From positions 975 through 64,974 of the forward strand of contig CAJAUM010000115.1 of the NCBI GenBank assembly GCA_903945175.1: a stretch of 64,000 bases of DNA, given 5' to 3'. The notes beneath the pieces are model-generated. The model saw only the letters and a list, made by a program, of their open reading frames with translations, searched no databases and had not been told where the DNA came from. The translations under genes and the position numbers were made by a program. Of this stretch, positions 3,764 to 56,045 are shown piece after piece. The DNA is from an uncultured Bacteroidales bacterium (GTDB lineage Bacteria > Bacteroidota > Bacteroidia > Bacteroidales > FEN-979). Each line of letters begins with the position of its first letter. The stretch's first letter is position 1.

Positions 3764-3783
3764 GTCACGCGTCACGCGTCACG
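3764..3783 (+). repeat. Heptamer tandem array (GTCACGC) x ~3, intergenic
   Basis: gtcacgc gtcacgc gtcacg read directly, 60 nt upstream of the mlaE start. Confidence 0.9.
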
Positions 3784-3842
3784 TTTTATTCCATCATCAA
3801 ACGCATATTCACCGAAATTTGGTATTTTAGCAAAAAGATTTT

Positions 3843-4586
3843 ATGCTGAAGATATTTTCAACCACCGGAGAGTATGTGCTTTTGATGCGGAAGGTCTTCA
3901 GCCGTCCGCAGAAACGCAGGATCTTCTGGAACCAGCTGATGACCGAAATCAACAGCCTGGGGTTGGAATCGCTGGGAATCGTTGCCTTTATCTCCGCCTT
4001 CATGGGAGCGGTAGTGGCCATTCAAACAGCCTACAACATCACCAGCCCCCTCATTCCCATGTCGATGGTTGGTTTTACCGTGCGCCAGAGCGTCATCCTC
4101 GAATTTTCTCCTACAGTGATCTCCCTGATCCTGGCCGGAAAGGTCGGATCAAGGATCGCCTCCGAGATTGGGACCATGCGGGTGACCGAGCAGATCGATG
4201 CGCTTGAAATCATGGGGGTGAATTCTGCCAACTTCCTTATTTTTCCAAAAATCGTTGCCTCCATGCTGATCAACCCGGTGCTGATCGTTTTCAGCATGTG
4301 GATGGGCATCCTGGGCGGCTGGCTGGCCATGGTTGCTACGGGGCTGGTCTCTACAAATGATTTTGTACAGGGAATCAGGATCGATTTTTTGGGATACACG
4401 ATATTTTATGCGCTGACCAAGACGGTGTTTTTTGCCTTTCTCATCTCCTCCATCTCGGGATTTTTTGGCTATATCACCCAGGGAGGCGCCCTGGAAGTTG
4501 GCCAGGCCAGCACAAAAGCAGTCGTTTTCAGCAGCGTCATGATCATCCTTTTCAACCTGGTATTAACACAACTTCTGCTCACATGA
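3843..4586 (+). CDS. mlaE: MlaE-family ABC transporter permease
   Basis: 247-aa multi-TM ORF (GIVAFISAFMGAVVAIQT..., EQIDALEIMGVN). Its stop overlaps the start of the following ATPase gene. Confidence 0.8.
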   Translation: MLKIFSTTGEYVLLMRKVFSRPQKRRIFWNQLMTEINSLGLESLGIVAFISAFMGAVVAIQTAYNITSPLIPMSMVGFTVRQSVILEFSPTVISLILAGKVGSRIASEIGTMRVTEQIDALEIMGVNSANFLIFPKIVASMLINPVLIVFSMWMGILGGWLAMVATGLVSTNDFVQGIRIDFLGYTIFYALTKTVFFAFLISSISGFFGYITQGGALEVGQASTKAVVFSSVMIILFNLVLTQLLLT

Positions 4587-5329
4587 TCGAGGCCCGGAAC
4601 ATCAGCAAGACCTTTGGCGAACATCGTGTGCTGAAGGATGTTTCCTGCTCTTTCGAGAAGGGGAAAACAAATCTGATCATCGGGCAGAGCGGCTCGGGAA
4701 AAACGGTGCTGATGAAGTGCCTCGTCGGGTTGTTCGAAGTCGATAGCGGCATCGTTGCCTACGACGACCGCAATTTCACCACCATGAACTTTGAGCAGCG
4801 AAAAACCCTCCGGCAGGAGATTGGCATGCTGTTCCAGGGCGGCGCCCTCTTTGATTACCTGGATGTTGAAGGGAATATCATGTTTCCGCTGAATATGTTT
4901 ACCAGACAATCGCATGAAGAAAAACTCGAACGGGTCAATTTCGTGCTGAAGCGCGTCAACCTTGAGAATGTCAACAAACTGATGCCCTCCGAACTCAGCG
5001 GGGGCATGCGCAAACGGGTGGCCATTGCCCGGGCCATTTCAATGAAGCCACAATACCTGTTCTGTGATGAGCCCAATTCAGGACTTGATCCGCAAACCTC
5101 AGGAGTGATCGACCGCCTCATCCAGGAAATTACCATGGAGTACAACATCACGACCATCGTCAATACCCATGACATGAATTCGGTTCTTGGCATCGGCGAC
5201 AGCGTGGCCTTTATTTTCCAGGGCGAACTGTGGTGGAAGGGAGATAAAGAGACCATCCTGCATACCCAAAACCCTGAACTGAATGAATTTGTCTTCGGAA
5301 CAGAATTGACCTCCAGGTTAAAACGATAA
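4583..5329 (+). CDS. mlaF: ABC transporter ATP-binding protein (MlaF-like)
   Basis: Walker A GQSGSGKT, ABC signature LSGGMRKR, Walker B LFCDEP. Confidence 0.85.
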   Translation: MIEARNISKTFGEHRVLKDVSCSFEKGKTNLIIGQSGSGKTVLMKCLVGLFEVDSGIVAYDDRNFTTMNFEQRKTLRQEIGMLFQGGALFDYLDVEGNIMFPLNMFTRQSHEEKLERVNFVLKRVNLENVNKLMPSELSGGMRKRVAIARAISMKPQYLFCDEPNSGLDPQTSGVIDRLIQEITMEYNITTIVNTHDMNSVLGIGDSVAFIFQGELWWKGDKETILHTQNPELNEFVFGTELTSRLKR

Positions 5330-5339
5330 TTCAACCGCC

Positions 5340-5843
5340 ATGAATTTTATTGATTATATCATACTCATCCTTGCCGTGGCCTTCATAATCGACGGCTACC
5401 GCAATGGGATCATCATCAGCCTGGCCAGTATTGCGGCGCTGATCCTGGGAATTTATATCGCCGTCCATTTTTCAAATTACCTCGATGCCACGCTCATCGA
5501 ACATGTGAATCCATCGAAAAAATGGCTGCCCATCCTCTCTTTCTGCATCACCTTCTTGTTGGTTGTGATTGCGATCATCGTGGTGGCCAAACTCATGGAA
5601 AAGCTGGTTGATGTGGTGGGCATGGGGTTCTTAAACCATCTTGGCGGCGCTGCACTCGGACTGGTAAAGGGAATCATCCTGGTAAGCATTCTGCTGTTTA
5701 TAGCCACCAGTTTTGATCCCAAGGGAAAATGGCTCACCCATGAAGATAAAAAGGAATCCTATTTTTATAAATCCGTTTCAGAGGTTTTTCCCAAACTGAT
5801 GAAGACCTTTGGCGGGGAGATCAAATTCCCGAACTGGAACTGA
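5340..5843 (+). CDS. cvpA: CvpA-family membrane protein
   Basis: 167 aa with four hydrophobic helices and a start of MNFIDYIILILAVAFIIDGYRNG, typical of CvpA. Confidence 0.7.
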   Translation: MNFIDYIILILAVAFIIDGYRNGIIISLASIAALILGIYIAVHFSNYLDATLIEHVNPSKKWLPILSFCITFLLVVIAIIVVAKLMEKLVDVVGMGFLNHLGGAALGLVKGIILVSILLFIATSFDPKGKWLTHEDKKESYFYKSVSEVFPKLMKTFGGEIKFPNWN

Positions 5844-5853
5844 ATACCAAAAA

Positions 5854-54417: not shown

Positions 54418-54432
54418 TCCGAATCCGAACTT

Positions 54433-55488
54433 ATGAGCGTTGAAACATTTGTTACCGATAAAGCCGGCTTGATCACATTCTATGAAGCCATCATGGCCAG
54501 TCACGAAACCTATGCCCCGGTCGAGAAATTCGGCAAATTTGATTTTAAGCAGGTGAAAAGCCTGGCGGAATGTGACCCAGAATCGCCCATTGCAAAGACC
54601 CAGAGCATCAAGCCCCTTTTCTTCCCCAGGTCGGCCAAGGTGATGAAATATGTTGCCACAAGCACAGGAACGGAAGTTTCGGAGGTTGATGAGGATCCGC
54701 TTGCCGTTAAACGCGTCATCCTGGGCGCAAAACATTGCGATGCCCGTGCATTGCAGGTTCTTGACAAGGTATACAACTGGGATTACATCGATACCGATTA
54801 CCAGAAGCGCCGGGAAAATACTGTGATTATCTCGACCCGTTGCGACAAGGCTGACACCCATTGTTTCTGCACTTCGCTCGATTACGATGTTGAAAATCTC
54901 AATGCCATGGATGTTTTGGTTGTACATGGATCCGATGGAAAGGTTTACATCAAAGCCAGGACAGAGAAAGGTTCTACACTTTTAAATACAGAGGTCACGC
55001 GTCACGCGTCACGTGTCACGGAAGAAGCCGCAGCACCCGACCTGAAAAAGCAATACGAAGCCTTTGCGGGTTCTTTCAGGCTTAAGATGGATTATTCGGA
55101 GGTTAATTCAAAATTGTCGAAGATCTTCGACACCCCGGAATTTGAAAATGTCTCGGGAAATTGTGTGAGCTGCAACACCTGTGCCTTTGTTTGTCCGACC
55201 TGCCATTGCTTCAAAATCTCCGATGAAAAAATCAAAGATACAGGGTTGCGATATAAAAGCTATGACTCCTGTAACAACGGATATTTTACCCTGATGGCGG
55301 GCGGTCACAATCCCCGTCCGGCCAAGTACCGTCGCTGGCGGCAGCGTGCCATGCACAAGTTTGTATACTACAAGGAGCGCTTTGGCGAGAACCTTTGTGT
55401 GGGGTGCGGTAAATGTACCATAGCCTGCCCGGTAAACATCAGTATTTTTGAGGTGGTTAATCAGGTGGCAGTAGGCAGTAGGCAATAG
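54433..55488 (+). CDS. flxB: AsrA / sulfhydrogenase-beta-like 4Fe-4S protein (FlxB-like) with an in-frame heptamer insertion and a repeat-encoded C-terminus
   Basis: [16 protein letters not shown] and [12 protein letters not shown] motifs. The last 7 codons and the TAG stop lie in the GGCAGTA array. Confidence 0.65.
54994..55021 (+). repeat. Heptamer tandem array (GTCACGC x 4, last two degenerate) inside flxB
   Basis: gtcacgc gtcacgc gtcacgt gtcacgg read directly. Translates in frame as VTRHASRVT. Confidence 0.95.
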
Positions 55489-55627
55489 GCAGTAGGCAAT
55501 AGGCAATAGGCAGTAGGCAGTAGGCAGTAGGCAGTAGGCAATAGGCAGTAGGCAATAGGCAATAGGCAGTAGGCAATAGGCAGTAGGCAGTAGGCAGTAG
55601 GCAATAGGCAGTAGGCAATAGGCAATA
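55467..55627 (+). repeat. Heptamer tandem array, 23 units (13 GGCAGTA + 10 GGCAATA)
   Basis: Counted unit by unit. 161 nt with no spacers. It ends 6 nt before the ATG of the four-helix-bundle gene. Confidence 0.97.
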
Positions 55628-55633
55628 AAGGGG

Positions 55634-56020
55634 ATGGAAGTGGAAAAGAAAAAAATTGTTTCCTATAAAGATCTTGAGGTCTGGAAAAAGGGGGTCCGAT
55701 TTACCATTGAAATCTACAGAATTACCAGCGAGTTTCCAAGTAGGGAACAATTCGGGCTTACCAATCAGTTGCGCAGGGCCGCATCCTCTATCCCTGCCAA
55801 TATTGCAGAAGGATATGGTCGTGAGAGCACGAAAAATTATATTCAGTTCCTTAAAACTGCCAGAGGTTCATTGAATGAAGTCGAAACTTTTCTTTATATA
55901 GGATTTGAATTGGAATATCTTAATAAACAAACCCTTGACAACTTGATTATTAAAACCACTGAACTTGGAAAAATGATGAATAGCCTGATCAAAAAACTAA
56001 ACCCTAACCCCACTGCCTAA
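55634..56020 (+). CDS. Four-helix-bundle protein (23S rRNA intervening-sequence protein / Avd family)
   Basis: [10 protein letters not shown]...[30 protein letters not shown]...[16 protein letters not shown] are hallmark motifs of the family. Confidence 0.9.
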
Positions 56021-56045
56021 TGCCTACTGCCTATTGCCTATTGCC
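56011..56045 (-). repeat. Inverted copy of the GGCAGTA/GGCAATA array (5 units)
   Basis: cactgcc taatgcc tactgcc tattgcc tattgcc. Its reverse complement matches array units 13-17 (55551-55585) at 33/35 positions. It contains the TAA stop of the four-helix-bundle gene. Confidence 0.95.

Follow-up and report, generated by a model that had tools for sequence, protein, structure and literature searches.

Tandem Heptamer Arrays in a Bacteroidales Contig and the Association of One Class with PF05635 Four-Helix-Bundle Genes

Introduction

Why should a short stretch of one bacterial genome carry nine tandem arrays of seven-nucleotide units, and why should two of these arrays face each other across a single small gene? 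The question is raised by a 64-kb window (64,000 nt; positions 975 to 64,974 of contig CAJAUM010000115.1, assembly GCA_903945175.1) from an uncultured member of the Bacteroidales, which is analysed here over its whole length. The arrays are numbered arr1 to arr9 in order of position, and the gene enclosed by arr8 and arr9 encodes a four-helix-bundle protein of the family PF05635. Heptamer tandem repeats have reportedly been known since 1990, as the short tandemly repeated repetitive (STRR) sequences, and we know of no accepted origin or function for them. PF05635 is a very large family, with thousands of homologues and two crystal structures, and to our knowledge it too has no known function.

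It is proposed here, with the balance of confidence about even, that the arrays are of two kinds: solitary slippage repeats (class B), and the inverted arms of a hairpin module built around a PF05635 gene (class A).

Results

A PF05635 gene enclosed by inverted heptamer arms

The four-helix-bundle gene (55634–56020, plus strand) is present as a single copy in the window. Its 128 aa product matches PF05635, the family named '23S rRNA intervening-sequence protein', with 138.5 bits (cutoff 33.8), TIGR02436 with 136.1 bits (cutoff 24), and the PDB entry 2GSC (XCC0516) with E = 1e-21. Immediately upstream is arr8 (55467–55627, plus strand), which consists of 23 units of GGCAGTA/GGCAATA, carries a TAG in each unit and holds the stop codon of the preceding iron-sulphur (FeS) subunit gene. 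Downstream is arr9 (56009–56055, plus strand), about five TGCCTAN units that are the reverse complement of arr8 and hold the stop codon of the four-helix-bundle gene itself; this arm had at first been placed only as far as 56045. Gene and arms together form a cassette that splits an oxidoreductase cluster, leaving the FeS subunit gene upstream and the FAD/NAD subunit gene (56086–56919) downstream. No inverted repeat in the window is longer than the one made by the arms. The right arm, arr9, can pair with arr8 in 18 or more registers, with up to 94% pairing over 33 nt, and the long-range stem is present in the minimum-energy fold (z = −3.6).

A second inverted structure, arr5 (36986–37065, plus strand), is a hairpin of AGCCAAT/AGCCATT units that encloses no gene; it lies between the nuoK stop codon and a TTTTT run followed by nuoL. 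The inverted pairs (arr5, arr8 and arr9), with units GGCAGTA/GGCAATA and AGCCAAT, make up class A, and their units take the form G-S-S-A-N-T-A.

The gene tables of the cassette and of the corresponding strain contigs list no transposase, integrase or reverse transcriptase near the cassette. An Rfam scan of the window found neither rRNA nor any other family, and the neighbours of the cassette are protein genes, not a 23S rRNA gene. The models for Avd, the accessory protein of diversity-generating retroelements, score below cutoff (NF033474, 30.6 vs 80 bits; PF22296, 28.2 vs 40 bits), and no reverse transcriptase, template or variable repeat is adjacent; assignment of the gene as the Avd component of such a retroelement was rejected on these two grounds. 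Compared with transposons and MITEs (miniature inverted-repeat transposable elements), the cassette has inverted arms, its copies are not near-identical, and inspection by eye of three cassettes (the window, a related genome, L019, and Xanthomonas) revealed no target-site duplication.

Many close homologues of the window protein are found on very short contigs (0.5–1.5 kb), the pattern to be expected if short-read assemblies are broken by the flanking arrays.

Association of PF05635 genes with inverted arms across phyla

The flanks of 80 loci encoding relatives of the window protein, from species-representative genomes of many phyla, were examined, and 75 of these entered a flank statistic that counts upstream 7-mers whose reverse complement occurs downstream, with a threshold of at least five shared 7-mers. 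The median count was 9 at the family loci and 2 in shifted controls. The threshold was reached at 61 of 75 loci (81%), compared with 67 of 520 shifted controls (13%; Fisher p = 1e-33), and the difference persisted when the comparison was made with other genes of these loci that likewise have intergenic sequence on both sides (32/41 vs 16/93). The link to four-helix-bundle genes suggested by the initial annotation is borne out across phyla for class A; it does not extend to the GTCACGC arrays of class B described below.

With a strict array caller, 33 of the 80 genes had arrays of period 7–9 no more than 300 nt away, and array density was 0.60/kb near the gene and 0.097/kb elsewhere; the caller undercounts the association because many arms are degenerate. 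RNAduplex energies between the flanks were tried as a statistic and dropped (median −105.8 vs −91.9, p = 0.011): they were large everywhere in GC-rich genomes, and were therefore replaced by the counts of shared reverse-complement 7-mers.

The arms have a fixed polarity relative to the gene. On the sense strand the upstream arm is G-rich in 34 of 40 cases and the downstream arm C-rich in 38 of 43, and the consensus unit is GGSANTA, with a TAG at each unit junction. Period 7 is the most frequent among strongly periodic flanks (15), ahead of period 8 (five) and period 9 (two). The family genes are mostly co-directional with both neighbours (56/63), from which they are separated by median gaps of 58 and 69 nt, and typical insertion sites are nuoC|nuoD, sdhA|sdhB and, in Xanthomonas, accB|accC. 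The last of these is occupied by the orthologues of XCC0516, which have arms of the GGGAATC type. Gene-less hairpins that share the unit of the local cassette were found nearby.

The TAG at the junction gives the arms a possible role in translation. Seven is not a multiple of three, so that a unit bearing a stop codon ends all frames within 21 nt, and arms of this kind would insulate what lies downstream and let an insertion replace the natural stop. Four intergenic arrays of the window lie behind a plus-strand host gene (arr4, the left arm of arr5, arr6 and arr8), and each of them stops all three plus-strand frames; three arrays supply the actual stop codon. The TAG is also the most conserved part of the arm consensus, and all frames are stopped by 14/40 upstream arms in the sense direction compared with 4/40 in antisense, and by 20/43 downstream arms in antisense compared with 4/43 in sense. 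However, stop codons are wholly absent from a quarter of the arms, arms of period 9 exist, the polarity may merely mirror the G-rich unit, and one stop codon is normally enough. A role as frame-independent stops, which could coexist with the other explanations considered here, is on this evidence quite improbable.

Plasmids were searched by tblastn, and the matches came mostly from heterocystous cyanobacteria. Six Nostocales loci, representing five distinct genes, were examined, and inverted heptamer arms were present at four of the five. One of these genes, on plasmid pANA02 of Anabaena sp. 90 (L243, 1198–1566 of the locus), lies in a type I-D cas operon, with cas6 and cas4 as its neighbours, and has arms of GGTGACA/GGGAACA and (CTGTCAC)n. 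Earlier papers place PF05635 genes within cas loci (PMC3936711; PMC10910872), and the arrangement in pANA02 suggests that this published 'CRISPR association' reflects insertion of cassettes into operons rather than a Cas function. In Nostoc sp. PCC 7120, an identical family gene occurs on plasmids gamma and alpha (L239 and L240), in both cases with a downstream arm only (CTTCTGC/CCTCTGC). Immediately upstream of the gamma copy is the end of an ISL3 transposase gene, and the nearest annotated transposase is about 550 nt upstream of the alpha copy.

Gain, loss and exchange of hairpins between related genomes

A related genome (L019/L021) carries a second, independent family gene at another junction, flanked by inverted arrays of 9-nt units. 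In the relatives L016 and L017 this junction is only 4 nt long, so that the pair represents filled and empty states of one site, and whole cassettes have been gained or lost between relatives. The same junction in the window, between an Rv0495c-like gene and a Fer4 gene, is a 47-nt spacer (25242–25288) with the sequence GAATGCAGATGGTGCCTGCTTTGCAGACATT. Single units of the L019/L021 arms, each 9 nt long (AATGCAGGC / GCCTGCATT / TTTGCATT), are similar to it, and by this resemblance it may be the remnant of a lost cassette.

The nuoK-nuoL spacer, which proved more informative than any other site, was compared between strains that encode identical NuoK proteins. Each carries a different heptamer family at this site, and each family is an inverted pair that folds to a hairpin: AGCCAAT in the window (−32.8 kcal/mol), GTGACGC in L014 (−41.3 kcal/mol), GGCAATA in L015 (−31.1 kcal/mol) and GGCGRTA/TCGCAGA in L018 (−34.2 kcal/mol). 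Such a swap of families is beyond the reach of in-place slippage alone. The arr5 hairpin, with its TTTTT run, was matched by a terminator consensus scan, and the alleles of L014, L015 and L018 have no T-run at the site. Promoter and terminator consensus scans of the window gave results near shuffle expectation and were uninformative, the terminator-like match at arr5 being the only one that they picked up.

Period-seven excess and the complement of arrays in the window

Arrays were detected with Tandem Repeats Finder, by reading out the raw sequence and by a lag-match scan of the 64-kb window. The lag-match scan found eight arrays of period 7 with at least about three copies, 381 nt in total, and none at periods 5, 6 or 8–15; twenty dinucleotide-type shuffles of the window gave a mean of 0.0 and a maximum of 0 arrays at period 7. 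The excess is real and specific to seven, since neighbouring periods and shuffles yielded nothing.

Much of the initial annotation was upheld. Tandem Repeats Finder recovered all nine arrays that it had listed, with the same units and with coordinates agreeing within a few bases, and the earlier description of a dispersed family was supported, the arrays forming a non-random set of STRR-like heptamer repeats. Among the dispersed loci of the window, GTCACGC occurs four times and GGCARTA twice. Five arrays do touch or contain a stop codon: arr4 lies on the atpB TGA, arr8 and arr9 contain stops, and arr5 and arr6 lie 0–3 nt past those of nuoK and tonB. The three arrays placed inside open reading frames (ORFs), in ispG, tsaB and an FlxB/AsrA-like FeS gene, are all translated. 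The division of units into two classes also stands, with one transfer: the tsaB array, assigned earlier to the GCC class, belongs with the TGAC-core units, since after rotation and complementing its unit AATGACC is one base from the atpB unit AATGACG. In themselves, the arrays add a further instance to an already known type of heptamer repeat.

Class B: solitary arrays with a TGAC core

Class B consists of arr1–4, arr6 and arr7, whose units share a TGAC core (GTCACGC, GGTCATT, TGACGAA). These arrays lie either just past stop codons or, as in-frame multiples of 21 nt, inside the ispG, tsaB and flxB-like genes. Three are intergenic. Array arr1 (3764–3783, no strand assigned) has 2.9 copies of GTCACGC and lies in the spacer that separates a DUF4258/DUF2283 pair on the minus strand from the divergently oriented mlaE on the plus strand. 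Array arr4 (19426–19470, plus strand), with 6.4 copies of TGACGAA/TGACGAG, begins on the stop codon TGA of atpB and ends 33 nt before atpE. Array arr6 (48456–48483, plus strand), with about four copies of CGTGAYR, starts 3 nt past the tonB stop codon and has a terminator-like hairpin downstream (about 48490–48521).

The remaining three are translated. Array arr2 (14024–14113, minus strand) is derived from GTGACGC and encodes (SRVTIDP)n at residues 124–153 of IspG; arr3 (14873–14942, minus strand), composed of CATTGGT/AATTGGT, encodes (DQLPMTN)n at residues 104–127 of TsaB; and arr7 (54994–55021, plus strand), with 3.9 copies of GTCACGC, encodes VTRHASRVT within the FlxB/AsrA-like FeS gene. The ispG and tsaB arrays have a 21-nt super-unit, with 96% and 93% matches at period 21 (Tandem Repeats Finder), and in the tsaB array a G-to-T change in each third unit removes an in-frame TGA. 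An in-frame 21-nt super-period with an avoided TGA is the expected product of selection for an open frame acting on a 7-nt repeat.

GTCACGC arrays are common in metagenomes and occur in many phyla. In 486 kb of metagenome contigs around 82 such arrays there was no four-helix-bundle gene, and no recurrent neighbour family other than a prepilin-like protein in one lineage. The TGAC-core arrays are treated as solitary simple repeats because no linked gene was found in these 486 kb. One strain does use the same unit in hairpin arms (L014 at the nuoK-nuoL site, where it is written GTGACGC). In five metagenome contigs from GC-rich genomes (L122, L130, L129, L167 and L116), GTCACGC arrays border or overlap the 5′ end of prepilin-type (FTLIELLV...) genes, where they are translated as (SRVTRHA)n, with other heptamer arrays just upstream.

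Targeted insertion at the 3′ ends of genes, one of the possibilities initially put forward for the arrays, was not demonstrated: if arrays come to fill the short spacers between cistrons, their closeness to stop codons is accounted for just as well. Class B arrays most likely gain and lose whole 7-nt units by slipped-strand mispairing, and would persist only where they are harmless, either in short spacers past stop codons or, as stop-free in-frame multiples of 21 nt, in loops of proteins.

Strain variation in copy number

Copy number was compared between contigs that encode exactly identical neighbouring proteins, with array length measured between fixed anchors. The contigs came from lake metagenomes and metagenome-assembled genomes, including 'Bacteroidota bacterium ELA698', and represent freshwater Bacteroidota with Por_Secre_tail genes of the type IX secretion system.

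Lengths differed in steps of seven. Contigs with an identical four-helix-bundle protein have arr8 alleles of 136, 143, 157 and 171 nt. Alleles of arr1 are 30 and 72 nt long, the longer one exceeding the other by 42 nt, or six units, and those of arr4 are 24, 31 and 45 nt; at the arr4 site, L018 has another unit, AATTAGG. Inside ispG the array measures 48 nt in relatives and 90 nt in the window, a difference of 42 nt (2 × 21), and non-repeat sequence takes its place in L018, a more distant relative. Every step at arr1, arr4, arr8 and ispG is a multiple of 7 and, within genes, of 21. The tsaB array has alleles of 70, 76 and 97 nt in relatives and is absent from L019/L021, while arr6 and arr7 are each identical in five strain contigs. 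Active gain and loss of units, in line with the active process initially inferred, is supported by the 7-nt steps at arr8, arr1 and arr4; most of the contigs compared are probably short-read assemblies. The tsaB genes of L016, L020 and L022 (about locus 5400–5500) carry a second heptamer array, GATTTCC/GATTTTC, beside the CATTGGT array, with an insert of 97 nt compared with 70 nt in the window.

A one-unit change within a gene would shift the reading frame, as in a phase-variation switch, and repeats are hard to assemble, so that the arrays could also be artefacts. Neither explanation is credible to any useful degree. The in-gene arrays sit in ispG and tsaB, which are normally indispensable, and variation there is only in multiples of 3 or 21. 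Artefacts would not account for arrays that recur in many independent assemblies (ENA, JGI, NCBI), among them a presumed long-read contig of 1.78 Mb from a more distant relative, in which the atpB and nuoK sites also carry arrays. Short arrays are free of any doubt about collapse.

A further possibility is that all nine arrays are ordinary slippage-prone repeats of a period favoured by the replication machinery, and that the inverted pairs and the four-helix-bundle gene are incidental. In prokaryotes no class of longer simple repeats, among units of 5–11 nt, is commoner than heptamers, which have been explained by polymerase slippage, according to Mrazek (2007) as cited in PMC4679880 and PMC4692102. 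The steps of seven agree with this, as does the occurrence of GTCACGC arrays in many phyla with no linked gene. It leaves unexplained, however, the association with PF05635 across phyla, the G-rich-then-C-rich polarity with its common GGSANTA consensus, and the exchange of heptamer families at nuoK-nuoL. The statistics of association and polarity already weigh against it for class A, and as an account of all nine arrays it is unlikely.

Other features of the window

The strain contigs differ from the window beside the nuo operon, where L006, L007, L009 and L012 carry an extra gene of about 1130–1160 aa (PKD, Por_Secre_tail) between the histidine kinase gene and nuoA; it is absent from the window (31350–32050). 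This is a gene-content polymorphism. The small DUF2283 and DUF4258 genes upstream of arr1 (3061–3515, minus strand) form a pair that is toxin-antitoxin-like in appearance and is also seen in L023–L032; the predicted length of the DUF4258 product is 74 or 86 aa depending on the strain, and in L024 an integrase replaces the upstream genes. Adjacent CAC and CCT trinucleotide runs (47923–47953) encode the proline-rich linker of TonB (PPPPPPPPPP), which is ordinary for this protein.

Discussion

A full class A module, as proposed here, would consist of a PF05635 gene enclosed by its arms and lying in line with the genes of an operon, in an intercistronic spacer; arr5 would be the short version, the same hairpin without the gene. 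The model for it is provided by those intervening sequences of 23S rRNA that contain an S23p ORF, in which bordering inverted repeats form a stem that is cut by RNase III (PMC4990558). By analogy, the arms would pair in the operon transcript, and could do so in any of many registers, so that slippage would spare the stem. The resulting duplex would be cut by RNase III, and this processing would make an insertion tolerable even inside essential operons. The RNA processing step is the weak element of the scheme.

A number of observations weigh against the proposal. A wobble test for a sense-strand RNA stem gave a null result, with 39 G-U-compatible mismatches between arms compared with 51 of the antisense type (p = 0.25), and the commonest mismatches were transversions (94). 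The arms in the window are very unequal (23 vs 5 units), the cassette in L019 is antisense to its neighbours, and the periods of 8 or 9 in some arms mean that seven is not obligatory. The arr8 alleles come from assemblies that are probably short-read, in which an array of about 160 nt may be collapsed. Class B, with its 486 kb devoid of PF05635 genes, is without a link to the family, so that the module does not serve as a single model for all nine arrays.

The wobble result is fitted at least as well by a role of the arms in DNA, as protein-binding inverted repeats of a mobile module. The arms would in that case be terminal inverted repeats, or iterated putative binding sites, that belong to a mobile cassette; its four-helix-bundle protein, as an Avd homologue, would bind the heptamers and help the cassette to move or persist, and gene-less hairpins would be non-autonomous, MITE-like derivatives. 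The conserved unit consensus and its fixed polarity relative to the gene are consistent with this, as are the filled and empty sites in relatives, the different arm families at nuoK-nuoL, the gene-less hairpins with the unit of the local cassette, a mismatch spectrum without RNA-strand bias and the weak matches to Avd models (30.6 bits to NF033474 and 28.2 bits to PF22296). On the other hand, the four-helix-bundle protein has no recognisable catalytic domain, no gene for a transposase, integrase or reverse transcriptase is nearby, and the three cassettes inspected by eye lack a target-site duplication. We regard this alternative as rather doubtful.

The processing model set out at the start of this section rests on the resemblance of the cassette to the 23S rRNA intervening sequences of Leptospira and Coxiella (PMC4990558). 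In both, a long stem made of terminal inverted repeats surrounds a PF05635 ORF, the ORF is present in some versions and missing from others, and the distribution is sporadic, suggesting horizontal spread. The window cassette differs in its location, in the intercistronic spacer of an mRNA instead of helix 25 or 45 of rRNA, and in its arms, which are tandem heptamers where the stems of rRNA intervening sequences are of unique sequence. Other elements share some of its features. Repetitive extragenic palindromic (REP) sequences, bacterial interspersed mosaic elements (BIMEs) and MITEs are likewise short palindromic modules that are found just past stop codons, between co-transcribed genes, and vary in presence between strains. 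The window modules differ from them in having tandem-heptamer arms, no transposase of the REP-associated tyrosine transposase (RAYT) or any other type, and no target-site duplication visible by eye. Avd of diversity-generating retroelements has a homologous four-helix-bundle fold, and the phage Avd is pentameric and binds nucleic acid.

The STRRs of heterocystous cyanobacteria resemble the window arrays in being dispersed, head-to-tail arrays of 7-nt units that are mostly intergenic and variable in copy number, with a few unit families per genome. The window differs in its Bacteroidota host, in its unit sequences and in that a subset of its arrays are paired arms around a specific gene family; no paper tying STRRs to such paired arms was found in the literature searched. 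We take the STRR units to be CCCCAGT, TTGGTCA and CAACAGT, although a literature check of the unit sequences, including STRR2 as TTGGTCA, did not confirm them. Presumably, STRR1 (CCCCAGT, complement GGGGACT) fits the arm consensus GGSANTN. Assignment of the window arrays as STRRs in the strict sense (Mazel 1990) was rejected, as the host belongs to the Bacteroidota and is not a heterocystous cyanobacterium, and only the tsaB unit is a rotation of TTGGTCA.

The initial annotation knew of no described mechanism for such arrays in Bacteroidota; tandem heptamers as such are already on record for Bacteroidetes. TAACTGA direct repeats occur in Beggiatoaceae, cyanobacteria and five Bacteroidetes, with up to 43 copies in some of the last (MacGregor 2015, PMC4679880). 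Like the window arrays, they are intergenic, have a stop-containing unit and a strain-specific copy number, and share their spacers with other heptamer repeats. Unlike the class A arms, they are direct repeats, are found for the most part immediately upstream of start codons, and have no associated gene reported.

The GGGAATC repeats of Xanthomonas and the GGGGAYT repeats of Nostoc were described by Rehm et al. (2015; PMC4692102). They are 89–93% intergenic, lie on average 28 nt from the 3′ end of the upstream gene, mostly between co-oriented neighbours, and form 70–75 convergent inverted pairs per genome; four-helix-bundle genes are unmentioned. Like those of the window they are heptamer arrays, and the XCC0516 cassette at accB/accC has arms of the GGGAATC type. 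Rehm et al. read them as quadruplex-forming, and the arrays of the window might by extension be regulatory elements that form G-quadruplexes or i-motifs, a role put forward for both the GGGAATC and the GGGGAYT repeats. Heptamers containing GGG do form quadruplexes in vitro, and the inverted pairs described are the same (PMC4692102). The window units (GGCAGTA, AGCCAAT, GTCACGC, TGACGAA and CATTGGT) have no G3 tracts and are unable to form G3 quadruplexes, and many arms elsewhere also lack such tracts, which makes this a very improbable explanation for them.

PF05635 genes in rRNA insertions have been reported previously. A literature search with poor coverage of subscription journals found no paper in which flanking heptamer repeats are connected with PF05635, S23p or four-helix-bundle genes. 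The four-helix-bundle cassette with heptamer arms is a variant of the intervening-sequence design, it extends well beyond the genome represented by the window, and it is new as far as the literature searched shows. A broader generalisation may be ventured only tentatively. PF05635 genes with inverted heptamer arrays may constitute a widespread and hitherto unrecognised class of selfish intercistronic cassettes, the operon counterpart of rRNA intervening sequences, and a large share of bacterial heptamer repeats (cyanobacterial STRRs, the GGGAATC pairs of Xanthomonas and the window arrays) would then be arms, solo arms or gene-less derivatives. The protein would recognise the heptamers and aid spread or maintenance of the cassette, and the association with cas genes would be the same hitch-hiking.

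Heptamer repeats and PF05635 genes are joined in a fixed architecture in Bacteroidota, Acidobacteriota, Planctomycetota, Alphaproteobacteria, Xanthomonas and Nostocales. This shared architecture gives two puzzles, that of the heptamers and that of the protein family, a handle that is testable in culturable organisms, and the view of these loci as cassettes provides a simpler reading of the PF05635 genes that lie inside cas, nuo, sdh and acc operons.

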